A DNA stretch of 64,000 nt from an uncultured Myxococcales bacterium (GTDB lineage Bacteria > Myxococcota_A > UBA9042 > DTJE01): the NCBI GenBank assembly GCA_903936705.1, contig CAIZWN010000071.1:51050-115049 (forward strand). Reading direction: 5' to 3'. A program made the translations under genes and the position numbers. Shown one piece after another: positions 34,750 to 47,718 of the stretch. Below the pieces are notes generated by a model. The model saw nothing but the letters and a program-made list of their open reading frames with translations. It had not been told where the DNA came from and searched no databases. Every line of letters starts with the position of its first letter. The first letter of the stretch is position 1.

Positions 34750-37062
34750 GTGCCGCTTGCCGATGCCGGGTCGCGTCGCTACCATACCGTCGTGAGTCAT
34801 CCCATTCGACGCGCACTGTTCCTGAACCCGACGCTGCACCTCCCTGCCGATTTCGTGGACTACCCCTGGTTTGCGCACCACGGCCTTTTGTTCGCCGCGG
34901 CTCGTGTTGCCAGGGCCGGATGGCAGGTCAAGCTGACCGACACCTTTGCGCTGCCGACCTCCGATCGTGTCGCGGATGGTTCTGGTTGGCGGTTGGGCGC
35001 TCCCGAGTCGGACCTGCTGGATGCAATTCCTGAAGGCCCTTTCGGTTTGGTTGTCATTGGATCGTCGTCCTTTTTAAGGCCATATCTGCCTGATCCACGC
35101 ACCGCCGCTTTCGTGGCTGCGGTCGGCAGGCGCTTTCCCGAGGCTGCCATCGTTCTTGCAGACGCCGATGTTGGAGGCATGCACGCGGTGGACTACGTGG
35201 GGACTTCGGTCATTGAAAAAATGGGTGCCCTGGACGTCGTGCTACGTCATTCTGGTGAAGATTTCTTTGGCGACCCGGATCGGCTGGTAGCATTGAAGGG
35301 TTCCCGTTCCGAGGTGCTTGATCCGCCCGGTCAGTGGGATGCACTTCCTCCATTTCCGTTGCTGGATGACCTGGACGCCGGTATGTACGGGGCTTTCCTT
35401 TGGCGCTGTTTTCGCGATGGCACGTGGTCGAACCCGTTCGGGATCGACGCATTCACCCGCCCGTTCATGACCTCCAGCGGATGTCCGCATCGCTGTGTCT
35501 TCTGCAGCAGCAACGCGGGCTGGCGGCAGACCGGTTGCAAGGTCCAGCGCGTGGTGCCACTTCATGTCCTGAAGGATTGGGCTTTCCTGGCTTCCCGCGT
35601 ACACGGCGCGCGCAAGCTGTTCATCCTTGACGAGATGGCCAACCTGCGCCACGACTTTGTAGAAATGTTGGAAATATTCGCGCAGCTCGACTTGCGCTAT
35701 GAGTTTCCGAACGGCCTGCGTGCTGACCGTTTGACCTCCGAAGCCATCGCGATGATGAAGGAGCGCATTTCACTGCTGTCGGTGTCAGCCGAGAGCGCCA
35801 GTGCCGCTGATCTGGCCGGCCCAATAGGCAAGCGCCAGGATCCGGCCCAGGTCGAACGCGTTGTTGCGGAAGCTGCCGGAATCGGTCTGCCAACGCTGGT
35901 CCATTTCGTGGTCGGGTTTCCCTGGGAGACGCCGAAATCGGTGCTGGCGACCCTTGATTTCGCCTGGCGCCTGTTCGACACCTATGGTGCGGCGCCCTCG
36001 GTCCAGTTTGCCACTCCACTGCGCGGCACGCCTCTCTTCGACATTTGCGTGCAGTCGGGCTTGATGTCTCCCGACGCCGGTACCTCGGCCGACGGCACGC
36101 TGTTTCAGCATCGTCCGGCGTTTCGGCCGCCGGCGATTCCCGAAGGCTGGTTGCAGACCGCTCACGCCATGTTTCGTCGCAAGGTTGAATCGGCATCGTC
36201 ACGCAAGGTCATCATCAACCTGACCTACGAGTGCATCAATGCGTGCGAGTTCTGCGCCGTTTCGAACCGCGAGAAACGTGACATCCCGTGGCCCCGGCTT
36301 CAGCAGTTCATCCGAGAATACAGGGCGCAAGGTCTGGATCAGATTGACCTTGACGGAGGCGAGCCAACTCTTCATCCCAACCTTGTCGACTCGATCAGAC
36401 TGGCCCGCGAGATAGGCTATAGGGAGATCAACGTCACCACCAACGGAAGGCGCCTGGCAGATTCAGTCTGGGCAAGGGAATTCCTATCCAGCGGGGTCAC
36501 CAGCGTTCTTGTTTCACTGCACGGTGAATCGTCAGGGATCCATGATGCGATAGTAGGTGTCCCTGGGGCCTTCGACGAGACCCTGGCTGGCATCAGAAAC
36601 CTGGTGACACTGCGAAAACATGGTCAGGACCTTGGGGTCAACATCACGGTATGCCGTCGCAACGTGGAACATCTTGATGCGCTTTTTGAATTGCTGGACC
36701 GCGAGCGCATAGACAAGGTGAACCTGCAATTGGTCACGCCGTTCGGATCGGCACGGCAGGATGTCGTTCCACCGGAGAGCCAGGCGACCGCAGCGGTGTG
36801 CCGGGTACTGGACCGCTTCGGAAAGTCGATGCGTTTGCACGTTGTAAACGCGCAGTTCTGCCTGTTTCCGGGTTACGAATCCTATCTTGGCGGAGACGTC
36901 GGCAAGGTGGGTCGTACGATGATCTTCGTGTCCGAAGAGAAGGTGAACCTGTTTGAATACCTGGCGGCCCGCCGCGTCCGTCGCCCGCCGTGCCTCGTCT
37001 GTCCCTGGGCTCCGGTGTGCGACGGCTTTTTCAAATTCGAGGAGGATGCCTCCGATGTCTGA
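34750..37062 (+). CDS. double radical SAM protein: B12-binding-like/class-B-type rSAM half fused to a MoaA/PqqE-like rSAM half with a C-terminal Cys motif
   Basis: Two CX3CX2C motifs: CPHRCVFC (aa 245-252, nt ~35482) and CINACEFC (aa 495-502, nt ~36232). The second half has GGEPTLHPN, TTNGRRL, VSLHGESSGIHDAIVGVPGAFDETLAGIRNL and terminal CLVCPWAPVCDG. Start is GTG 34750 (7 nt after the upstream stop) or GTG 34792. Confidence 0.8.
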   Translation: MPLADAGSRRYHTVVSHPIRRALFLNPTLHLPADFVDYPWFAHHGLLFAAARVARAGWQVKLTDTFALPTSDRVADGSGWRLGAPESDLLDAIPEGPFGLVVIGSSSFLRPYLPDPRTAAFVAAVGRRFPEAAIVLADADVGGMHAVDYVGTSVIEKMGALDVVLRHSGEDFFGDPDRLVALKGSRSEVLDPPGQWDALPPFPLLDDLDAGMYGAFLWRCFRDGTWSNPFGIDAFTRPFMTSSGCPHRCVFCSSNAGWRQTGCKVQRVVPLHVLKDWAFLASRVHGARKLFILDEMANLRHDFVEMLEIFAQLDLRYEFPNGLRADRLTSEAIAMMKERISLLSVSAESASAADLAGPIGKRQDPAQVERVVAEAAGIGLPTLVHFVVGFPWETPKSVLATLDFAWRLFDTYGAAPSVQFATPLRGTPLFDICVQSGLMSPDAGTSADGTLFQHRPAFRPPAIPEGWLQTAHAMFRRKVESASSRKVIINLTYECINACEFCAVSNREKRDIPWPRLQQFIREYRAQGLDQIDLDGGEPTLHPNLVDSIRLAREIGYREINVTTNGRRLADSVWAREFLSSGVTSVLVSLHGESSGIHDAIVGVPGAFDETLAGIRNLVTLRKHGQDLGVNITVCRRNVEHLDALFELLDRERIDKVNLQLVTPFGSARQDVVPPESQATAAVCRVLDRFGKSMRLHVVNAQFCLFPGYESYLGGDVGKVGRTMIFVSEEKVNLFEYLAARRVRRPPCLVCPWAPVCDGFFKFEEDASDV

Positions 37063-37993
37063 TCGTGCAGCCTTCGGTGTTGTTGATGACATGTCGGACG
37101 TCCTGGTGGACGTAATCCTCGGCTACGAGTGCAATGTCCAATGCGACTACTGCTCGATCACGCCGGGGATGCGACTCAGCAACATGTCGACCAAGGTGGT
37201 GATCGAGGAACTGGCCCGCGCCCGGGCGCTGGGAATGTCGCGAGTGGCGTTTGGCGGCGGCGAGCCTACCATCCGCCGGGACCTGTTCCCGCTGGTCAGA
37301 TACGCCCGGGATCGCGGCTTTGCGTCGGTCAAGGTGTCGTCGAACGGACTGATGTACTCGTACGAGGACTACGTGCGCCAGGCGATCGAGGCCGGGATCA
37401 CCGATTTTCATGTTTCGGTGATGGCGCATACGCCGGAACTCTACAGGAAGATTCTGGGGCATAAGGAAGGCCTCGAACTGGTCACTCGTGGGGTCGGCAA
37501 CCTTGTTGCGGCGGGACATGTGCCGGTCCTGGATCTGATCGTGAAGGACGACACCTACATGCACCTGTCGGATATCATCGCGTACTGGGCGGCCCTGGGC
37601 GCGCGAATGTTCCCGCTGTGGCTGGTGTCCTTGTCGGACCGGAACCGCGACAACGTGGACTCTCTTCCCCCGGTCTCGCTGATGCGGGCGTCCCTGGTTG
37701 CGGCCTTCGAGCGCGGGCGCGAACTGGGCGTCACCGTCTATTCAAGGCATATTCCTCGATGCATGTTGCGGGGGTACGAGGCTTTCTGTCGGGACCTCCG
37801 TGATGATCGCGTGCTGGTTGTCACTCCAGGATCCAGGTTCTTCCTTTGGGAGTCGGCCATCAGTCCGAACACTTACAGCCCCAGGTGCGAGTCGTGTCTG
37901 TACGTTCGACGGGAGTGCCAGGGGATCCGTCGGGACTATTTGGAACGCCACGGGGATGCCGAGGTCGTGCCCTACGAGGGTCGGGATGGATGA
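37055..37993 (+). CDS. radical SAM protein (paralog of 6907..7998)
   Basis: CNVQCDYC, GGGEPTIRRD, SSNGLMY, VSVMAH..., C-terminal CESCLYVRRECQG. ATG at 37055 overlaps the upstream stop (ATGTCTGA), with GAGGAGGA as RBS. Confidence 0.85.
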   Translation: MSDRAAFGVVDDMSDVLVDVILGYECNVQCDYCSITPGMRLSNMSTKVVIEELARARALGMSRVAFGGGEPTIRRDLFPLVRYARDRGFASVKVSSNGLMYSYEDYVRQAIEAGITDFHVSVMAHTPELYRKILGHKEGLELVTRGVGNLVAAGHVPVLDLIVKDDTYMHLSDIIAYWAALGARMFPLWLVSLSDRNRDNVDSLPPVSLMRASLVAAFERGRELGVTVYSRHIPRCMLRGYEAFCRDLRDDRVLVVTPGSRFFLWESAISPNTYSPRCESCLYVRRECQGIRRDYLERHGDAEVVPYEGRDG

Positions 37994-38918
37994 TCGAGAC
38001 GCGCTGCCTGGCAGCAATTCGTTCGACTACATACCGGTTCGGGAACTTCAAGGCTTCATGCTGGACGTTTCATGCTGCACCGCGCGTGAACTGGGTCTTT
38101 CCCGCGCAGCTACCAGCCGCGCCGTTATCGTGGCTGTGGATGCGAGGTTCGTGCTTTGCAGGACGGACACTGGGGACTTCTCGGATGCCCAGGTCAGGCT
38201 CGTTGTTCATCAGCGGGGCCAGCTGTATCTGGATGTCTCGGGAAAGCCGGCGATAACGGATTTCGGGCGCGACGTCCGTCAGGTCGTGGTTTCGCCGACG
38301 TGCCGGTCCTGCCCGGACCTGGCAACATGCTGTGCCTGCTATGTTCCGACGTTCGCCTGGTTCTTCGAGGATGACGAGAAGGTCCTGGAGGACTGGCTGC
38401 GGGCCAGGCGAGGCCGCCTGCTTGACGTGGGAATGGGTTTTGCCCCATACCGCGAGGCAATGTCCGACGCGATTCTAGGCGGTCGGCTGGAGTACCACGG
38501 CCTTGACCCCGATCCTGCGGTCATTGCGGCGGCCGGGGCCTCGGGACTTCCGATGAGCCTGCACGAGGTTGCCATCGAGGCGTTTGTGGGCTGCGAAGGA
38601 TTCTTCGATGCGGCAGTGGCATTGCGTAGCTTGAACCATTTTCAAGATGTTGATTGCGCGCTTGACGTCATTGCCAGGTGTCTTCGCCCCGGGGCCGAGG
38701 TTCTGATGATCGAATCGTTGCCATTGCCGCTGGTTCGTTCGCGCAGGCATGCTTCGCTATGCCATGTCGAGGCGGCCGGAGGACACGCTCATCTCAGGAA
38801 CTGGGACTCGTCGCAGGTCGTTGCGCGCCTGCCGGGTCGTCCATTCTCGGTAGTCCAGGAACGGCCGGTCGGTCGCGACACGTGCGACCAGTGGATTCTT
38901 CGATTGCGCCGGGATTGA
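37986..38918 (+). CDS. class I SAM-dependent methyltransferase with Cys-rich N-terminal domain
   Basis: LLDVGMGFAPY (motif I-like), LRPGAEVLMIE (post-II/III-like). N-terminal CRSCPDLATCCACY. ATG at 37986 overlaps the upstream stop (ATGGATGA). Confidence 0.65.
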   Translation: MDDRDALPGSNSFDYIPVRELQGFMLDVSCCTARELGLSRAATSRAVIVAVDARFVLCRTDTGDFSDAQVRLVVHQRGQLYLDVSGKPAITDFGRDVRQVVVSPTCRSCPDLATCCACYVPTFAWFFEDDEKVLEDWLRARRGRLLDVGMGFAPYREAMSDAILGGRLEYHGLDPDPAVIAAAGASGLPMSLHEVAIEAFVGCEGFFDAAVALRSLNHFQDVDCALDVIARCLRPGAEVLMIESLPLPLVRSRRHASLCHVEAAGGHAHLRNWDSSQVVARLPGRPFSVVQERPVGRDTCDQWILRLRRD

Positions 38919-38928
38919 AAACCCGAGA

Positions 38929-40917
38929 TCAGTCAGTCACGAACAGGACCCTGGCGATCTCCTCTGGGGTCGTTATGCCGTTGACCAGCAGGTGGCGGCA
39001 ATGCTCGCGCAGCGGCTGGAACAGGCCGGTTTCCATGGCCATCTTCTCGATTACCGGCATGGACTCGCCTGCGGCTATCAGCGGACGAAGGCGGTCGTCA
39101 ACCCGCAGGACTTCGAAGACGCCGACGCGGCCGCGGAAGCCCTGGTAGTTGCAGTTCAAACACCCGCTGCCCTTCATGAACGAGAAGCCGCCAGCCCCCT
39201 CGTCCTTTCCGAACAGCCCCAGCGGCATGATCAGGTCCGGGTGATATGTTGTAGGCTGGCGACAGTGCGGGCAAACCCTGCGCAACAGGCGCTGGCTGAC
39301 GACGCCTACCAGAGTGTGGGCCAGAAGGAACGATTCGACCCCCATCTCGCGCATGCGCACCACCGAACCCAGCGCGTCGTTCGCGTGCAGCGACGTGAAC
39401 ACCAGGTGACCCGTCAGCGCGGCTTCGACCGTCGTTGCGGCCGTCTGCGGGTCGCGGGTCTCGCCGACGACGATTACGTCCGGATCCTGACGCAGGAAGT
39501 GGCGAACACTGTTCGCGAATGAGACGCCGGCCGCATCGTTCACCTGCACCTGAGTGATCCCTTCGATGGTGTACTCGATGGGGTCCTCGATCGTGACGAT
39601 ATTGATTTCATCCTCGCGCAACCGAAGCATCGCGCTGTAGATGGTCGTCGTCTTGCCGCTGCCGGTCGGGCCGGCAATTATGACCAGGCCTTGCGGTTGT
39701 TCGATCATCCAGCGCATTGCACGATAGGTCGGGTCATGAAGGATCAGGCGTTCCAGATCGATAAGGACCGTCTGGGGATCCAGGATTCGCAGGACCAACT
39801 TCTCGCCGAATCGCGTTGGGACCGTCGACAGGCGAAAGTCGATCTGGCGGCGTCCGTGCTCGACAGACAAGCGGCCATCCTGGGCGCGGCGCTTTTCGGC
39901 GATGTCCATCCTGCCCAGCGCCTTCAGTCGCGATACCAGAGGCGGGTGGAACCTCATATCCAGGGGTTCAGGGCGACGCTTCAGTCTGCCGTCCACCCGG
40001 TAACGGACGACCATTTCGGTCTCGGACGGTTCCAGGTGGATGTCGCTGGCAGCCAGTTCGAGTGCCTCGCCGATCAGCCGGTTGACAAGGGCGACAACCA
40101 TCTCTCCCGAAATCTGCTTGCCTCGTTCATCCGGTGTCACGGAGGGCGTGGAATCGATCAAGCGGACTTCGTGGGCCTTCTGGCTGACCATCTGAAACCA
40201 GCGATCTCGTGGATTTTCGTCCGGGCGCAGCTTTTCCAGGGCCGGAATGACGTTAGTCCGAAAGAACCGGTCGAACTCGCTGCCATCCAGGGCGACCGGG
40301 CGCACCCGATAGCTGGTCAGCACGCGCGACACGTCGTCAACAATGTTCAGGTCACCAGGGTCCACGAAGCCGACTACCAGCACGCGGCCATTACGGGCCA
40401 GTGGGAGGGCGCGGTACTTGCGCATCTGGGTCTGAGGCAGCAGTCCCCACAAGGATTCGTCCAGCTTCAGGCGGGCCAGGTCAACGACGCGGGCGCCGGT
40501 TGGAACCGAGGCTGCCTGAAGCCGCTCGGCCACGGTTCGCAGAAGGGCCGCGTGAAGGACCGGATCGTCGGCACACGCCTCCAGCAAAGCAGCTCGGGGC
40601 AGCATGGCGAGGGTTGTTGGTTCCTGGACCCAGGCCGAAACGCCATGGGGCGCGCCAAGGAGAATCTCGGCAAGACCAAGGAAATCGCCAGGACCAAGGC
40701 GGCCTCCCAGGTATTCCAGACCGTCGGCGATGTCGCGCCATCCGGTCTGCAAACGGCCTTCGACGATGATCGCTACAACGTTCGGCTGCGAGTCCTGGCG
40801 GCAAACCTCCTGGTCAGGCAGCAGGGTGACGGTTTCCATCGCTGCCGAAAAAGAGGCCACGCGGGCGGGGGCGAACGACGCGAAAAGCGGCATTGCAAGT
40901 ACGGCGTCCAGGTCCAT
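38929..40917 (-). CDS. GspE/PilB-family secretion ATPase with N-terminal cyclic-nucleotide-binding-like domain and T2SSE_N domain
   Basis: N-terminus LAMPLFASF...VCRQDSQPNVVAIIVEGRL (cNMP-binding fold-like). T2SSE_N-like segment (RALPLARNGRVLVVGFVDPGDLNIVDDV). Walker A GPTGSGKTTT, Asp/His boxes, and tetra-Cys CPHC...CLNC. ATG at 40917; the ORF extends to 40998. Confidence 0.85.
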   Translation of the reverse strand: MDLDAVLAMPLFASFAPARVASFSAAMETVTLLPDQEVCRQDSQPNVVAIIVEGRLQTGWRDIADGLEYLGGRLGPGDFLGLAEILLGAPHGVSAWVQEPTTLAMLPRAALLEACADDPVLHAALLRTVAERLQAASVPTGARVVDLARLKLDESLWGLLPQTQMRKYRALPLARNGRVLVVGFVDPGDLNIVDDVSRVLTSYRVRPVALDGSEFDRFFRTNVIPALEKLRPDENPRDRWFQMVSQKAHEVRLIDSTPSVTPDERGKQISGEMVVALVNRLIGEALELAASDIHLEPSETEMVVRYRVDGRLKRRPEPLDMRFHPPLVSRLKALGRMDIAEKRRAQDGRLSVEHGRRQIDFRLSTVPTRFGEKLVLRILDPQTVLIDLERLILHDPTYRAMRWMIEQPQGLVIIAGPTGSGKTTTIYSAMLRLREDEINIVTIEDPIEYTIEGITQVQVNDAAGVSFANSVRHFLRQDPDVIVVGETRDPQTAATTVEAALTGHLVFTSLHANDALGSVVRMREMGVESFLLAHTLVGVVSQRLLRRVCPHCRQPTTYHPDLIMPLGLFGKDEGAGGFSFMKGSGCLNCNYQGFRGRVGVFEVLRVDDRLRPLIAAGESMPVIEKMAMETGLFQPLREHCRHLLVNGITTPEEIARVLFVTD

Positions 40918-41136
40918 GGCAGACTCCGGGGTGAACGGCCTAGGATTGCAGTAAGCGCGTCGCGTGGCAATACCGAGCGACCGATTTGAATGCGGCATTC
41001 CGGCTTTGTGATGAGCAATGGTTTCGACATGATGATTGGTCTTCGGGCGCGGGCGAAACCATGGCGAGAATGCCCGTATGGCGTTGCCAACAACTGGCTG
41101 AAATTGTAGACTCCCGCCGGTCTTCAGGAGCTCTCA

Positions 41137-43341
41137 GTGGAGTCTGCCCGTACAGTGGCGTCGTCGGTTTGTTCTCCTCCTGATCGGTGTGTTGATCCGC
41201 GGCGCGGCCTGGTGTGCGGGATCCTTGGGTGGCTGGGGCTGTCGGCGCTGCTGGCGTTGGTTTCGGCCCCTGTTGTGGCCCTTGTTGATCTGCTGGTCAT
41301 CACAGTGAACCCCAACTCGGTGACGCCGTCCGATGCCGGTGCGCCGGTGCTTTCCGTTCTGCTGATCTTTCTTGCTGCTTCCGTACTTGCGATGGTTCAG
41401 GCGCCTGTTCTGGCGTTCGGTATTCGGGCGATCAGGCTGCTGGGGCCAGCCCGCGCGTTCAGGACTCTGGTTACCGGCCTTGTCGCACTGCCGCTTCTTG
41501 GAATTGTCTGGTGGATTCAGGCTCCAGGCCTGGATCGTGTGACCGATCCCGACCTTCGTGTGATGTTGCAGGTCGTCTTCGTGCTGGCGTCTGCCGCTGG
41601 TTCAATAGTGGCCGGCGTGGTTGTCGCGTCCTTGATCGAATCCCGTCAGGATGGTGCCAGTCGTTTGCGCGATGCTGGATTGGCTGCCGGCGGTCTTGGT
41701 GTCGCCTTTGCCGCGATCTTCGTGGCAGCCCTTTGGTCAAGGTTCTATCGCGAGCTGATTGACGCTGTGCCTCTTGCGGCGTTGACGCTTTTCGGGTTGT
41801 GCGAGGCTGGTGTGGTGCTGGCCGTTACCGCCCTTCCGGCGGTGTCGTCGTGGGCCAGGAGGTTGCTGGCCGTAAATTCCTTCAGGATTGTGCTGCTGCT
41901 GGCTCCAGTCGCCTTCTTCATGCTGGCCGAAGGTGTCTCGAGGATTGATCCCGACGCAGCCCCATGGGTCGGGTCCAGTAACGGTGCCGCGGGCCGTGTG
42001 CAGTCCATTCTGCGCGGCATCTGGGACTTCGACGGCGACGGCAGCAGCCCGATCCTCGGGGGCGGTGATTGCGACGATGACGATCCACAGGTCTCGCCCC
42101 TTGCGGTCGATGAACCTGGCAACGGGATCGACGAGGACTGCAGCGGTGATGACGCCGAGGTCGCCAGTGCCGCGGCCATGAAAACGTACTTCAAGGAACC
42201 CCAGGATGGCAAACGCTACAACGTGTTGCTGGTCTGCATAGATGCCATGAGGGCGGATCGGGTCTCATTCCTGGGTTATCCGCGGCGGACAACTCCCCGG
42301 CTGGAGGTGTTGTCGCGCGATTCGTGGCTGTTCGACAACGTCATCGCCCCATCGTCGACCACGCGTGAGTCCATCCCGCCGCTGTTTACCGGTCGCTATC
42401 CATCCGGGGTCCAGTGGGAAAGGGAAGCCAAGGTGCGTCCCCTGGCCGCTTCCCAGCGACTGCTGGCCGAGGTGCTGAAGGGGCGCGGCTGGCAGACCCT
42501 TGGGGTGATCGACGAGTGGCTGAAGAAGTTTCTTCCAAGCTCGTTGCGCGGGTTCGACATCGCTGAGGTAGCCTACGGCAATGGTCGTTGGAACGAGGTC
42601 GGCCAGCAGGCGGCGCCATTTACGCTGTTCAGGGCCGTCGAGTTGCTGGGGGCGCGGGATAAAAGCAAGCCGTTCTTCATGTACGTGCACATGGAGGCGC
42701 CTCACTTTCCCTACGTCCGCCACGAGGACATTCCCAGTTTCGGCAGCCTGCCGTCCGACCTGTATGACCACGAGATTGCGTACGCGGATCACTACGTCGG
42801 GCTGCTGATCGAGTACCTGGAAACCGAGCGCCTGAAGGACGACACGATCATCATCGTCTTCGGGGACCACGGCGAGGAGTTTGGCGAACGCGGCGGAAAG
42901 CAGCATTCGAGAACCCTTTATGCCGAGAGCATCCGCGTGCCGTTGCTGGTCCGGATTCCCGGCCGGCGCCATATGCGCATCAAGACCCGGGTCTCGCTGA
43001 TCGACGTCTTCCCGACATTGATGGACGTGCTGGGGCTGCGGCCCGATGAACCCCAGCCGCAGGGCTTCAGCCTGTTCCAGTACACGCGTGGCTCGGACCC
43101 GTGGCCCGATCGTCCGATATTCTCGGAACTCATGATCAACAACGAGGGCGCGCTGAGATACCGCAAGGCCGTCTACCGCGGCAATTTCAAGCTGCTGTGG
43201 GACATGTCGTCAGGGTTGACCGAACTATACGATGTGGTTCAGGACCCCAAGGAAATGTCCCCGATCGATGATCCCGAGGTCCAGGATTCCCTGCTGGAGC
43301 TGCTGAAAGACTTCGTCGCCCGCGGGGATCATCACGGGTAG
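41137..43341 (+). CDS. polytopic membrane protein with periplasmic sulfatase/alkaline-phosphatase-superfamily domain
   Basis: About 7 N-terminal TM segments, then LLVCIDAMRADR, PSSTTRESIPPLFTGRYP, HMEAPHFPY, GDHGEEFGERG (sulfatase family). The linker carries GGGDCDDDDPQVSPLAVDEPGNGIDEDCSGDD. GTG start with CAGGAG upstream. Confidence 0.75.
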   Translation: MESARTVASSVCSPPDRCVDPRRGLVCGILGWLGLSALLALVSAPVVALVDLLVITVNPNSVTPSDAGAPVLSVLLIFLAASVLAMVQAPVLAFGIRAIRLLGPARAFRTLVTGLVALPLLGIVWWIQAPGLDRVTDPDLRVMLQVVFVLASAAGSIVAGVVVASLIESRQDGASRLRDAGLAAGGLGVAFAAIFVAALWSRFYRELIDAVPLAALTLFGLCEAGVVLAVTALPAVSSWARRLLAVNSFRIVLLLAPVAFFMLAEGVSRIDPDAAPWVGSSNGAAGRVQSILRGIWDFDGDGSSPILGGGDCDDDDPQVSPLAVDEPGNGIDEDCSGDDAEVASAAAMKTYFKEPQDGKRYNVLLVCIDAMRADRVSFLGYPRRTTPRLEVLSRDSWLFDNVIAPSSTTRESIPPLFTGRYPSGVQWEREAKVRPLAASQRLLAEVLKGRGWQTLGVIDEWLKKFLPSSLRGFDIAEVAYGNGRWNEVGQQAAPFTLFRAVELLGARDKSKPFFMYVHMEAPHFPYVRHEDIPSFGSLPSDLYDHEIAYADHYVGLLIEYLETERLKDDTIIIVFGDHGEEFGERGGKQHSRTLYAESIRVPLLVRIPGRRHMRIKTRVSLIDVFPTLMDVLGLRPDEPQPQGFSLFQYTRGSDPWPDRPIFSELMINNEGALRYRKAVYRGNFKLLWDMSSGLTELYDVVQDPKEMSPIDDPEVQDSLLELLKDFVARGDHHG

Positions 43342-44304: not shown

Positions 44305-47300
44305 CTACCCGCGCTTGCGACTGGGGCGGCAGAATCGCAGGAGGACCAGGCCGAGGAACCAGAGCATTGCAGCGCCCTTGGACCCGGGGCCACTTCCGAC
44401 CGAGCATCCGCTGCCGCTGCCGCTGTTGTTTGTCGCGGCTGGTGTGCATACGAACGACGTGCGGTCGACTTCGCCGTCTTCCAGTTCGCCGTTGCGCGCA
44501 ATGCCGTCGGGAACTCCGTCGTCGAGTCCAGTGTCAATTCGCTGTCCACCGTTTTGACAGTTGTCGCCTGCGGATTCCTCTACAATTCTGACGAGGGCCA
44601 AGAACCCGTCGGTCCCGTTCGTCCCGTTGTTGCCTTCCAGTCCCGAACCGCCGTTTTCTCCGTTGCACACGAAGAAGGAATCGTCGATCTCTTCGGCCTC
44701 GAGTACGCCGTTTCCCGCAGTACCACCAGGAAGGCCGTCGTCAAGGCCGGTGTCAATTCTCTTGCCGCCCGTGGGGCAGTTTGATCCCGGTGCCTCGTCG
44801 ATGACGTTGACCAGGGATTTGGATCCGTTGGTCCCGTCGACGCCGTTGGTTCCGTCGATACCGTTGGTTCCGTCGATACCGTTGGTCCCGTCGATGCCGT
44901 TGGTTCCGGCTTCGCCATCTGTACCGTTGCACACAAACACCGAACTATCGACCTCCGCATCTTCCAGGATACCGTTGCCAGCCGTGCCGGTGGGGAGGCC
45001 GTCATCAAGGCCGGTGTCGATGCGCTTGCCTCCTGTCGGGCAGTTTTCGCCGGCGATTTCGGTCGTGATCTTGACCAGCGAGTTGAGGCCGTTAGCGCCG
45101 GCGGTTCCATTGGTCCCGTTGGTCCCGTTAGTGCCGTCGGTGCCATTGGTGCCGTCGGTGCCGTCGGTGCCATTGGTGCCGTTAGTGCCATTGGTGCCGT
45201 CAGCCCCGTTCGAACCGTTGCAGACGTACGACGTGGAGTCGATCTCGCCCACTTCCAGCAGGCTGTTGCCAGTCGTGCCGCTTGGTAGGCCGTCATCAAG
45301 GCCGGTGTCGATGCGCTTGCCCCCTGTCGGGCAGTTCTCGCCGGCGATTTCGGTCGTGACCTTGACCAGCGAGTTGAGGCCGCTAGTGCCGTCGGTTCCG
45401 TTGGTGCCGTCGGTTCCGTTGGTGCCGTCGGTTCCGTTGGTGCCGTCGGTTCCGTTGGTGCCGTCGGTACCGTTAGTGCCGTCGGTTCCATTGGTGCCGT
45501 TGGTCCCATTCGAACCGTTGCAGACGTAGGACGTGGAGTCGATCTCGCCCACCTCCAGCAGGCTGTTGCCAGTTGTGCCGCTCGGGAGGCCGTCATCAAT
45601 GCCGGTGTCGATACGTTTGCCCCCGGTCGGGCAGTTTTCGCCGGCGACCTCGGTCGTGACCTTGACCAGCGAGTTGAGCCCGTTAGCGCCGTTGGTTCCA
45701 TTTGTACCGTCAGTTCCGTTAGTGCCGTCGGTTCCGTTAGTGCCGTTGGTTCCGTTAGTGCCGTTGGTTCCGTTAGTGCCGTTGGTTCCGTTAGTGCCGT
45801 CGGCCCCGTTAATGCCGTCGGTCCCGTTCGAACCGTTGCAGACGTACGACGTGGAGTTGATCTCGCCCACTTCCAGCACGCCGTTGCCAGCCGTGCCGCT
45901 GGGGAGGCCGTCATCAAGGCCGGTGTCGATGCGCTTGCCTCCAGTCGGGCAGCTTTCGCCGGCGATCTCGGTCGTGACCTTGACCAGCGAATTTAAGCCG
46001 TTAGTGCCGTTAGTTCCATTTGTGCCGTCGGTCCCGTTGGTGCCGTCGGTCCCATTGGTGCCGTCGGTCCCATTGGTGCCGTCAGTCCCGTTCGAACCAT
46101 TGCAGACGTACACCGTAGAGTTGATCTCGCCCACCTCCAGCAGGCCGTTGTTTGCCGTGCCGCTGGGGAGGCCGTCGTCAAGGCCGGTGTCGATGCGCTT
46201 GCCCCCGGTCGGGCAACTTTCGCCGGCGATCTCGGTCGTGACCTTGACAAGCGAGTTGATGCCGTTGGTGCCGTTGGTTCCGTTGGTTCCGTTGGTGCCG
46301 TTCGAACCGTTCGAACCGTTGCAGACGTACGATGTGGAATCGAACTCGCCTACCTCCAGTACGCCGTTGCCAGCCGTGCCGCTTGGTAGGCCGTCATCAA
46401 GGCCGGCGTCGATGCGCTTGCCACCTGTCGTACAGTTTTCACCCGCGCTTTCGGTAGTGATCTTCAACAGCGATTTCACCCCTGAACTGCCGGTGGCGCC
46501 ATTGCAAATGTATCGTGTCGCCACGCCCACATCTGGGACTCCGTCCATGTCATAGTCAGTGCCGCTGCGCAGTCGCGTCCCACCGTACGTGCAGTTGGCG
46601 CCCGACGCCTCGGCTATCACCTCGATGGCAGCCAATCCGGTCGCTTCGACCGCACCCACGTCGCAGGCCACATTGGCTGGACGGGCGATTCCGCGCTGGT
46701 CGGTGGTCACTGTGTTTCCCGCGAAGTCCGTGCAGATGCCAGTATCGACCGCCGGGCTGCCGTATTGCAGCGGATAGCATCTGCCGGTCCCGCCATGTGC
46801 CCCGATGGAACCAAGCATCGGGCCGACGTTCTGGCGGTCAGATGACAGCGTCAGGCTGGACATCGTGGTGTCGCACAGATTGTAGCCAAGGCTGGTGAAG
46901 TTAGGGCCATCACGGTAGACGGTGGTATTGCCGGTTATGATGTTGTTCTTCAATTGGATGGTGCCCGTGCCCGCGAACGCCGCCGCGTTGCCGGTGATCG
47001 TCGAGTGGCTGACCCGGACCGTGCCGATGCCTGGGTTCCAGATCGCTCCATATGAAGAGTAGGTGTGGCCGTGGAGCGTTGAGTTGATGATGTCGACGGT
47101 CGGACTGTAGTCTGATGCAACGATGCAAGTGTACGGTCCCTCGACCTCGCAGGAATCGAAGCGCCCGCTGCCCTTGCTGATAGCAACAGCGTAGTACGCC
47201 GATTTTAGGCGGCAATCGGTTGCGGTCAAGGACGTTCCTGTAGAGCTGCCGCCTTGGTAAACTGCGTACATGCCGCTGGTCACGATATCCAGGCTGCGCA

Positions 47301-47649
47301 GGGACACGGTCAGGCTGGCAGTATCGATGGCGAACACATTGCCGGTGTGGGCGATGTGCGTCTGGCCAGTGGTTCCAACAATGGAAACGCTCGCCGTGAT
47401 CTGGAACATCGTGCCACTGTTGTAGGTGCCAGCAGGCAAAAGGATGGTGTCCGCTCCGCTGCCGGCCGGGCAGGCGTCCGAGGCAGTGTCCCCGTTGGCT
47501 GCGGCGAGCGCCTCTCGAAGCGAGCAGTCTCCATCGCTGTTGAGCTCATCGCCGGTAGTCGTGACCCTGATCGTGGTCGCAAAAGCCACGCTTGGGATCA
47601 GCAGCAGTGCGGTCAACGCCAGGAACCGGTCAAGCCTTGGTGATCGCAT
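44305..47649 (-). CDS. large surface protein: signal peptide, parallel beta-helix domain, 8-9 Cys-pair modules alternating with collagen-like G-T-[ND] triplet runs, MYXO-CTERM-like tail
   Basis: Signal LALTALLLIPSVAFA. DGDCSLREALAAANGD plus Gly/Thr/Asn-rich beta-helix-like repeats. Repeated LNSLVKVTTEIAGENCPTGGKRIDTGLDDGLPSGT.GN..LEVGEIDSTSYVCNG modules are each followed by 6-17 GXY triplets (GTNGTDGTN...). C-terminus is GSGSGCSVGSG...AAMLWFLGLVLLRFCRPSRKRG. ATG at 47649 with a GGAGGAG RBS. Confidence 0.85.
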   Translation of the reverse strand: MRSPRLDRFLALTALLLIPSVAFATTIRVTTTGDELNSDGDCSLREALAAANGDTASDACPAGSGADTILLPAGTYNSGTMFQITASVSIVGTTGQTHIAHTGNVFAIDTASLTVSLRSLDIVTSGMYAVYQGGSSTGTSLTATDCRLKSAYYAVAISKGSGRFDSCEVEGPYTCIVASDYSPTVDIINSTLHGHTYSSYGAIWNPGIGTVRVSHSTITGNAAAFAGTGTIQLKNNIITGNTTVYRDGPNFTSLGYNLCDTTMSSLTLSSDRQNVGPMLGSIGAHGGTGRCYPLQYGSPAVDTGICTDFAGNTVTTDQRGIARPANVACDVGAVEATGLAAIEVIAEASGANCTYGGTRLRSGTDYDMDGVPDVGVATRYICNGATGSSGVKSLLKITTESAGENCTTGGKRIDAGLDDGLPSGTAGNGVLEVGEFDSTSYVCNGSNGSNGTNGTNGTNGTNGINSLVKVTTEIAGESCPTGGKRIDTGLDDGLPSGTANNGLLEVGEINSTVYVCNGSNGTDGTNGTDGTNGTDGTNGTDGTNGTNGTNGLNSLVKVTTEIAGESCPTGGKRIDTGLDDGLPSGTAGNGVLEVGEINSTSYVCNGSNGTDGINGADGTNGTNGTNGTNGTNGTNGTNGTDGTNGTDGTNGTNGANGLNSLVKVTTEVAGENCPTGGKRIDTGIDDGLPSGTTGNSLLEVGEIDSTSYVCNGSNGTNGTNGTDGTNGTDGTNGTDGTNGTDGTNGTDGTNGTDGTSGLNSLVKVTTEIAGENCPTGGKRIDTGLDDGLPSGTTGNSLLEVGEIDSTSYVCNGSNGADGTNGTNGTNGTDGTDGTNGTDGTNGTNGTNGTAGANGLNSLVKITTEIAGENCPTGGKRIDTGLDDGLPTGTAGNGILEDAEVDSSVFVCNGTDGEAGTNGIDGTNGIDGTNGIDGTNGVDGTNGSKSLVNVIDEAPGSNCPTGGKRIDTGLDDGLPGGTAGNGVLEAEEIDDSFFVCNGENGGSGLEGNNGTNGTDGFLALVRIVEESAGDNCQNGGQRIDTGLDDGVPDGIARNGELEDGEVDRTSFVCTPAATNNSGSGSGCSVGSGPGSKGAAMLWFLGLVLLRFCRPSRKRG
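44608..46482. repeat. nested coding tandem repeats: ~230-310-nt macro-repeats (x7-8) each containing 9/18-nt GTN/GTD-encoding micro-repeats
   Basis: Near-identical DNA blocks are visible (e.g. ggccgtcatcaaggccggtgtcgatgcgcttgcc recurring), along with runs of gccgtcggt/gccgttggt units. Coordinates are derived from aa 411-1035 of the protein. Confidence 0.9.
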
Positions 47650-47718
47650 GGGATATTCTCCTCCTTTTGCTTTCCCTGGCAATGCAACCTTCATGCGGGA
47701 CCAATCTCGCAATCCGGC

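Follow-up and report, generated by a model that had tools for sequence, protein, structure and literature searches.

Beta-helix head and probable stalk of DUF7151 modules and proline-free Gly-X-Y runs in a predicted MYXO-CTERM surface protein from a Myxococcota-type lake-water bacterium

What kind of protein alternates small cysteine-paired domains with long runs of Gly-X-Y triplets that hold no proline, and what could such an array be for? The question is raised by a gene of an uncultured Myxococcales bacterium (GTDB lineage Myxococcota_A; UBA9042; DTJE01), located in a 64,000-nucleotide (nt) stretch of contig CAIZWN010000071.1 (assembly GCA_903936705.1, positions 51,050 to 115,049 of the forward strand). 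This whole stretch is called the window below, and its own numbering is used. The host genome comprises 4.85 Mb in 84 contigs and is 96% complete. The gene occupies the longest open reading frame (ORF) of its region in the program-made ORF list (44305-47712, minus strand), of which the ATG at 47649 is the likely start codon, because AAGGAGGAG, a strong ribosome-binding site (RBS), stands 8 nt upstream. From this ATG a single uninterrupted ORF (window 44305-47649) encodes a protein of 1,114 amino acids (aa), and a script run on the translation counted 29 Cys, 18 of which make up nine regularly spaced pairs. We consider it probable that the product is exported by Sec, anchored at the surface by a MYXO-CTERM tail and built as a beta-helix head on a stalk of DUF7151 domains (beads) and Gly-X-Y runs (rods), triple helices being our favoured reading of the rods. 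Of this, the domains, the membership of the family and the sorting machinery encoded in the genome were observed directly.

The beads were recognized by Pfam, which assigned nine stretches of the protein to PF23657 (DUF7151; 364.6 bits versus a gathering threshold of 27.2, E 1.6e-111); a six-frame search of the genome recovered all nine. Their Cys pairs are 353/382, 406/443, 479/516, 567/604, 673/710, 773/810, 870/907, 958/995 and 1031/1068. The initial annotation, made from the sequence without database searches, had described eight to nine modules of about 55 aa, and Pfam and the Cys pairs alike give nine. Both module Cys (C23 and C60) are invariant in an alignment of 136 modules. AlphaFold2 (AF2), given aa 545-618 and 135 homologous module fragments, produced a model of three antiparallel strands with a long loop between strands 2 and 3; its core has a predicted local distance difference test score (pLDDT) of 95-97, and its Gly-X-Y flanks one of 61-78. 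The positions of the two Cys in the strand order suggest an intradomain disulfide. No structural relative of the module model was found in the PDB by Foldseek (best E 2.6), for which the domain is possibly too small, and a sequence search of the PDB returned collagen-periodicity matches only, with none to DUF7151 or the head.

The rods are seven uninterrupted runs with a total of 261 residues, none of them Pro and only four of them K, R or E. Almost all of their triplets are GTN or GTD, with Thr at X and Asn or Asp at Y. The description of these runs as collagen-like was borne out by Pfam Collagen (PF01391, 110.7 bits versus a cut-off of 27.2), and the stabilizing composition of collagens (Pro at X, charged or glycosylated-Thr substitutes) was absent from them. 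The runs had been counted as 6, 11, 17, 15, 14, 11 and 6 triplets; strict counts are each one higher, the gap arising because the first GSN or the last GLN triplet was counted or not. An 18-nt unit, GGC ACC AAC GGA ACC GAC, dominates the run DNA, within which synonymous codons vary (4-11 distinct 9-mers per run). Tandem Repeats Finder (TRF) detected nested periods of 9/18 nt and 300-318 nt, so the array is not due to chance. The repeat GTNGTD has no hydrophobic position, which ruled out an RTX beta-roll or a left-handed beta-helix.

Is such an array peculiar to this protein? The initial annotation had regarded Pro-free runs between Cys-pair beads as unusual, and here it was mistaken. Over 1,000 relatives were returned by a search with the whole protein; PF23657 is present in nearly all of them and PF01391 in many as well. 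Their sources include Myxococcota, Polyangiaceae, Persicimonas (Bradymonadales), Ekhidna (Bacteroidota) and Alcanivorax along with many metagenomes, and their heads are as diverse as RCC1, FG-GAP, BNR/sortilin, Lcl_C and beta-helix, among others. Among 1.84 billion representatives, the module profile found 7,659 clusters (50% identity, E ≤ 1e-3), the longest arrays having 24 modules. Runs were analysed in 122 proteins (120 homologs, this protein and a paralogue from the same genome), 120 of which carry a Gly-X-Y run of at least three triplets directly after a module. Run lengths in the family extend from 2 to 38 triplets, and the rods of this protein, with up to 18, are longer than most. Over the 122 proteins, Asn and Asp occupy 28% and 23% of Y positions, and Pro 7% of X and 1.4% of Y positions. 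After de-duplication the two positions differ sharply (X/Y: D 3/26%, N 4/24%, Q 4/10%, L 8/0.2%, E 4/0.7% and P 7/3.5%). Of 222 inter-module linkers with a length of 18-53 aa, 211 have Gly at each third residue without exception, always in the phase C-N-G, and many consist of diverse triplets. Pro-poor Gly-X-Y sequence with Asn or Asp at Y, alternating with DUF7151, is thus the norm of a family that is catalogued and has never been studied (a literature search found no paper that mentions DUF7151), and this protein is a typical member.

The position of the array within its relatives suggests what it does. In a survey of 121 proteins, a MYXO-like C-terminal tail was accompanied by an N-terminal head in 13 of 15 cases and an N-terminal lipobox by a C-terminal head in 45 of 52, with no example of the opposite arrangement in either group. 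Since the array always stands between membrane anchor and head, it is well supported, by this polarity rule, as a membrane-proximal stalk, in line with the stalk part of the 'segmented trimeric stalk' first proposed.

A second DUF7151 protein of ~1,480 aa is encoded elsewhere in the genome (contig C8:12571-17065, minus strand). It combines a subtilisin-like S8 head with a Cys-rich region, five DUF7151 modules whose loops are of the canonical EF-hand type, and a MYXO-CTERM tail (GRNGSGCSMAAP...IVRRRR), and it has no Gly-X-Y rods; DUF7151 arrays can therefore be stalks without rods.

The loop between strands may hold a metal site in most of the family. The first 12 positions of PROSITE PS00018 (D-x-[DNS]-x-[DENSTG]-[DNQGHRK]-x-[LIVMC]-[DENQSTAGC]-x-x-[DE]) were found in 515 of 714 homolog modules, with 1.6 expected by shuffling, and Pfam EF-hand models match within homolog modules, which suggests an EF-hand Ca2+ site in most relatives. 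The modules of the present protein belong to a minority long-loop form with a Cys-Cys spacing of 37 (65 of the 714 modules), in which a 6-residue insert, DDGLPSGTAGNG, interrupts the EF-hand loop.

At the other end of the stalk, a signal peptide and a beta-helix head had been proposed; the translation agrees with the former, and NCBIfam, AF2 and Foldseek with the latter. The signal peptide is predicted to be cleaved after SVAFA. CSLREA_Nterm (TIGR04214) matched aa 28-52 with 32.7 bits and choice-of-anchor Q (NF041518) aa 277-336 with 54.7 bits, both versus a cut-off of 25. For aa 24-345, AF2 with 20 homologous heads as input gave a right-handed beta-helix (pLDDT 88, predicted template modelling score 0.89). 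The top Foldseek match of this model in the PDB was the N-terminal domain of Rhombotarget A (RbtA; 9cdv_A/9cdu, E 6.6e-9, probability 1.00, TMq 0.67), followed by pectate lyase Pel9A and other polysaccharide-active beta-helices. In 21 heads, the motifs C-S-L-R-E-A, D-Q-R-G and C-D-x-G-A-x-E show little or no variation, and the invariant residues are confined to the two caps, with none along the helix. A variable binding surface therefore fits better than a conserved active site, and the head is most likely a ligand binder (adhesin or glycan binder), not a conserved enzyme. The same combination of CSLREA/beta-helix head and DUF7151 array occurs in a few relatives (P0014, P0081, P0144, P0169 and P0195).

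The C-terminus, GSGSGCSVGSGPGSKGAAMLWFLGLVLLRFCRPSRKRG, is composed as the initial annotation had described it, of GSGSGC, SVGSGPGSKG, a hydrophobic helix (AAMLWFLGLVLLRFC) and RPSRKRG before the stop. The likeness to MYXO-CTERM that it had noticed is supported by TIGR03901 in the six-frame genome search (23.8 bits, cut-off 20), though not in the whole-protein scan (17.4 bits), and by sister tails: the genome contains seven matches, six of them over the cut-off including this one, and all seven share G-x-G-C-[SQ], a spacer, a transmembrane (TM) helix and an Arg-rich end. The cognate sorting protease anticipated elsewhere in the genome is also present, as a single myxosortase (contig C47; Mrt_core NF040914, 135.8 bits versus a cut-off of 100), together with a GspD secretin (501 bits versus a cut-off of 351). 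The best full-length model for the myxosortase is MrtP (NF040674; 240.5 bits over positions 2-351 of 354, under the 250 cut-off), the Bradymonadales-type myxosortase (10.1101/2023.06.07.544157). The enzyme has 362 aa and lies at ~8.2-9.3 kb of its contig (L005:736-1824, plus strand). From these scores, the organism may carry an MrtP-like variant outside the described Bradymonadales. In M. xanthus, MrtX cleaves MYXO-CTERM and is required for surface anchoring that depends on a type II secretion system (T2SS); lipidation of the MYXO-CTERM Cys is predicted, and the mechanism of lipidation, tail cleavage and surface display is only partly established even for TraA (PMC11980579). The author of TIGR03901 notes that so short a domain needs curatorial review (10.1101/2023.06.07.544157). 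With its strong genomic context and an HMM (hidden Markov model) score that is borderline by itself, the assignment of this tail to MYXO-CTERM is credible.

From these data a route to the surface can be proposed by homology. The protein would be exported by Sec, its disulfides would form in the periplasm, and the tail would first hold it in the inner membrane. The invariant C1082 is predicted to be lipidated, and the single MrtP-type myxosortase would remove the TM helix and the Arg tail. The T2SS would then carry the protein, already folded, to the outer membrane's outer face, where it would stay attached through the C-terminal lipid. There, nine disulfide-stapled, three-stranded beads and seven Pro-free rods would hold the RbtA-like head off the cell, with a reach estimated at ~100 nm if fully extended (261 rod residues × 0.286 nm plus nine beads of ~2.7 nm).

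How the rods fold is the point on which readings differ. Three chains may associate and their rods form collagen-type triple helices; we favour this tentatively, at a little under an even chance, because a disordered spacer would need neither the strict Gly periodicity nor the asymmetry between X and Y. Trimer-associated heads occur in relatives (Lcl_C in P0002, the Peptidase_S74 intramolecular chaperone in P0004), and the C-terminal domain of Lcl is a trimer (PMC11162425). The runs may instead be monomeric hydrophilic spacers, flexible or polyproline II (PPII)-like, with no triple helix and no trimer, that grew by 9/18-nt slippage from the short, conserved connector C-N-G...G-L-N; anchor, head and beads would be unchanged. 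This explanation is nearly as likely, and much of what speaks for it weighs at the same time against the triple helix. Pro is absent from the runs and charged pairs are nearly so, X being filled by Thr and Y by Asn or Asp. Low triple-helix propensity has been reported for Thr, Asn and Asp in host-guest peptide studies. The runs here have only 5-18 triplets, and many relatives have only 2-4 between modules; a single 18-nt unit dominates the DNA; the rod-free paralogue dispenses with runs altogether; the triplets flanking the modelled module have low pLDDT; and neither the RbtA-like beta-helix nor the subtilisin head of the paralogue is known to trimerize. Disorder, however, does not call for Gly at every third residue, and the linkers are perfectly periodic even where their triplets are not repeated. 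The sharp difference between X and Y survives de-duplication, and the number of distinct 9-mers in each run suggests that the pattern has been maintained, beyond recent slippage. Moreover, the many Asn-Gly dipeptides of the rods would deamidate quickly in an unstructured chain.

These dipeptides number 51 (aa 445-1017, window 44599-46317). In unstructured peptides no sequence deamidates more readily than Asn-Gly, whose product is Asp or isoAsp; Asp is also the residue that alternates with Asn in the rods. The rods may be structurally protected from deamidation or may age chemically on the cell surface.

The runs could also be a functional surface and no passive stalk: on a PPII or triple-helical scaffold, a regularly spaced Thr/Asn ladder that binds ice, mineral or Ca2+, or polysaccharide, or else an N-G-T glycosylation array. 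The DNA comes from a lake-water metagenome, nearly every triplet has Thr at X and Asn or Asp at Y, the snow-flea antifreeze protein is formed by Gly-X-X PPII helices, and 39 of the 53 N-X-S/T sequons of the protein are located in runs. All the same we judge this highly improbable. X and Y residues vary widely in the family (A, S, V, I, Q and others), run lengths from 2 to 38 triplets leave no fixed surface conserved, and a spacer role alone explains the anchor-stalk-head polarity. N-glycosylation of the N-G-T sequons was set aside, as the genome has no STT3/PglB oligosaccharyltransferase (cytoplasmic HMW1C-type transferases were outside this search). A weak NCBIfam match of aa 807-851 to HxsA4 (His-Xaa-Ser repeat; 29 versus 55 bits) was judged a low-complexity coincidence. 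A radical-SAM/methyltransferase module is encoded 6 kb from the gene (window 34750-38918, plus strand); a GspE-like ATPase gene, a sulfatase-like gene and VapBC lie in between, on mixed strands.

Other observations weigh against our overall explanation at points beyond the rods. The MYXO-CTERM score is borderline in the whole-protein hmmscan, under the cut-off of 20 with 17.4 bits (E 0.004). RbtA, the closest solved structure to the head, has no assigned function. The EF-hand pattern matches none of the nine modules, whose loop is DDGLPSGTAGNGVLEVGE, so Ca2+ binding by this protein is uncertain. No RNA runs with the gene were found. Finally, every Logan contig from four lake-water metagenomes of one study (X1-X4) breaks inside Gly-X-Y DNA, and the order of the modules and the triplet numbers of the central runs consequently rest on the original assembly.

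This last point raises the question whether the array might be, wholly or in part, an assembly artefact (a collapse, an expansion or a chimeric joining of paralogous or strain-variant repeats), with wrong module and triplet counts. Central modules 2-5 are 91-92% identical in nucleotides, and the relative in a congener is much shorter (see below). Nevertheless, the X1-X4 contigs match the two flanks, and the unique core of each central module, without a single difference. The depth of these cores (9-21) is like that of the flanks (14-15), as expected for single-copy segments. With the frame open through 1,114 codons and an architecture that matches thousands of relatives of 3-24 modules, we regard an artefact as unlikely.

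Contigs from a different study (X5) point to variation in stalk length. Flanks in this population are ~97% identical, and the four central module cores are missing from it even when likeness is relaxed to 85%. Its contigs join run 5 to run 1 (window 45136-46316), with 1135 nt skipped and 7 nt added, a net loss of 1128 nt that keeps the frame; a second joint skips 1179 nt. Two alternative joints, along with others that 'go back', are also what an artefact might produce. They suggest shorter in-frame stalk alleles generated by recombination between rods, which the contigs cannot prove. From these joints, the 91-92% identity of the central modules and the TRF periods, the array would evolve by in-frame duplication and loss of ~300-nt module-plus-rod units and of 9/18-nt triplet units, altering the length of the stalk with the frame kept.

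The coordinates of all features are collected in the table.

Table. Features of the surface-protein gene, in window coordinates
Feature	Position	Strand	Basis
RBS AAGGAGGAG	47658..47666	-	Read from sequence; 8 nt 5' of ATG at 47649
Sec signal peptide MRSPRLDRFLALTALLLIPSVAFA/TT, aa 1-24 (...SVAFA/TT)	47578..47649	-	Translation: basic n-region, hydrophobic core, AxA site
Head, aa 25-339: CSLREA cap aa 28-52, right-handed beta-helix, choice-of-anchor Q cap aa 277-336	46633..47577	-	NCBIfam, AF2, Foldseek
Stalk, aa 340-1070: nine DUF7151 modules with interleaved Gly-X-Y runs	44440..46632	-	Pfam PF23657, AF2, family polarity
Run 1, aa 445-465, 7 triplets	46255..46317	-	Script count, TRF
Run 2, aa 518-553, 12 triplets	45991..46098	-	Script count, TRF
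Run 3, aa 606-659, 18 triplets	45673..45834	-	Script count, TRF; best Pfam Collagen stretch aa 606-657
Run 4, aa 712-759, 16 triplets	45373..45516	-	Script count, TRF
Run 5, aa 812-856, 15 triplets	45082..45216	-	Script count, TRF
Run 6, aa 909-944, 12 triplets	44818..44925	-	Script count, TRF
Run 7, aa 997-1017, 7 triplets (5 if triplets with second Gly excluded)	44599..44661	-	Script count
MYXO-CTERM-type tail, aa 1071-1114: GSGSGC(1082)S motif, spacer, TM helix, RPSRKRG	44308..44439	-	TIGR03901, local consensus
Stop codon	44305-44307	-	

The neighbouring genes encode a GspE/PilB-type ATPase with a domain that binds cyclic nucleotide monophosphates, a membrane sulfatase-like protein, VapBC, an FG-GAP lipoprotein and threonyl-tRNA synthetase; no operon partner is evident among them. 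The ATPase (window 38929-40998, minus strand) is of the secretion type and combines an N-terminal cyclic-nucleotide-binding domain with an MshEN domain. There are no further secretion genes near it, and the GspD secretin is on another contig (C2). The sulfatase-like protein (window 41137-43341, plus strand) is polytopic; a MopE-like Cys/Asp metal-binding motif precedes its sulfatase-family domain, and its gene adjoins the VapBC pair and the surface-protein gene.

Within the genus the gene is patchily distributed, a related gene being present in one of three congeners. That genome (G002, contig C50, L009:1495-2280, minus strand) has a 261-aa ORF whose three DUF7151 modules and MYXO-CTERM tail match the protein's C-terminal part at 72% identity, and which has no signal peptide and no head. 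Either the ORF is a truncated remnant or the sequence was misassembled at the repeats.

The importance of these results rests on the family, with ~7,600 clusters in several phyla and never studied; the individual protein is ordinary. Three points lend themselves to testing: the position of the stalk, the EF-hand loop in a fold without a solved relative, and the Pro-free Gly periodicity with its X/Y asymmetry. If the rods are true triple helices, the sequence range of collagen extends to Pro-free Thr/Asn/Asp triplets, and the node-and-rod design, modular and Ca2+-dependent, would possibly be useful for biomaterials. The array may then be an undescribed bacterial collagen, a homotrimeric, segmented and Pro-free triple helix with nodes every 5-40 triplets, a broader proposal that we find conceivable and rather doubtful. 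Its triplets would have Thr or Ala at X and Asn, Asp or Gln at Y, and its disulfide-stapled DUF7151 nodes, usually Ca2+-binding, may set the register and nucleate the helix. Thousands of bacteria from several phyla may carry surface enzymes and adhesins on such a stalk of adjustable length. The protein described here, its rods nearly pure (GTN/GTD)n, may be the extreme case, and the 51 Asn-Gly sites in these rods could double as a built-in deamidation clock.

Comparison with known systems places the protein closest to its own family. Examples of PF23657 in Persicimonas caeni (FIV42_24090), Ekhidna, Alcanivorax and metagenome-assembled genomes of Polyangiaceae share with it the consensus SLV..T.E.AG.NC..GG..I..G.D...E...T.YVCNG, with two invariant Cys ~46 aa apart, the tandem arrangement, the Gly-X-Y linkers with Asn or Asp at Y after the modules, and the location of the array between anchor and variable head. 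The cultured P. caeni, of the Bradymonadales, possesses an MrtP besides a DUF7151 protein that ends in MYXO-CTERM. The present protein differs from its relatives in its long-loop modules (spacing 37) without canonical EF-hand, its longer rods and its rare CSLREA/beta-helix head.

Among bacterial collagen-like proteins, Scl1/Scl2 of Streptococcus, BclA of Bacillus and Lcl of Legionella likewise combine uninterrupted Gly-X-Y with a globular head on a surface protein; Lcl is also a T2SS substrate, and its Lcl_C domain is the head of some DUF7151 relatives (PMC11162425). The models for SclB (NF038329, 67.9 versus 325 bits), SclA (NF038330, 20.2 versus 400) and Lcl (NF046116, 38.2 versus 500) matched far below their cut-offs, and these matches stem from Gly periodicity only. 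Those proteins have one long rod and an LPXTG or peripheral anchor, whereas the repeats described here are without Pro, almost without charge and split by folded domains into segments of 5-18 triplets, and the anchor is MYXO-CTERM.

In giant adhesins, extender regions, for example region II in the ice-binding adhesin of Marinomonas primoryensis, project a ligand-binding head on tandem small domains rigidified by Ca2+. The likeness is a functional analogy only, with Ca2+ binding predicted in most DUF7151 relatives; that region has a bacterial immunoglobulin-like (BIg) fold, type I secretion, an N-terminal anchor and no Gly-X-Y. TraA of Myxococcus xanthus, with its head, Cys-containing stalk and tail, has an architecture to which that of this protein can be likened. 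MYXO-CTERM surface proteins of Myxococcota, of which TraA is one, likewise end in a Gly/Ser-rich motif that includes an invariant Cys, then a TM helix and an Arg-rich stretch, and have the same pairing of myxosortase and T2SS (PMC11980579). M. xanthus, however, uses MrtX, whereas the enzyme found here is closest to the Bradymonadales type MrtP; this genome has ~6-7 tails versus dozens, and DUF7151 modules with rods take the place of the Cys-rich repeats of TraA.

For the head, the nearest known system is RbtA of Acinetobacter baumannii (9CDV/9CDU), a T2SS-dependent surface protein with a GlyGly-CTERM tail (PMC12643943, PMC5861075); a 'CSLREA domain-containing protein' is listed in the T2SS-dependent secretome of A. 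baumannii UPAB1. The two share a beta-helix head with a CSLREA-type cap, a tripartite C-terminal tail, an intramembrane protease and T2SS dependence (PMC12643943, PMC5861075), the sorting features being predictions in the case of the present protein. The sequences are only 17-18% identical, RbtA lacks a DUF7151/Gly-X-Y stalk, and its GlyGly-CTERM is cut by rhombosortase, a serine rhomboid, in contrast to MYXO-CTERM and a glutamic protease of the CPBP type here. No GlyGly-CTERM or RbtA model appeared among the NCBIfam matches of the protein, and because its tail has the Cys-containing MYXO-CTERM pattern it was not filed as RbtA. The pair illustrates the 'choice-of-anchor' principle, the RbtA-type head standing on GlyGly-CTERM in Acinetobacter and, in this bacterium, on MYXO-CTERM with a Bradymonadales-type myxosortase.

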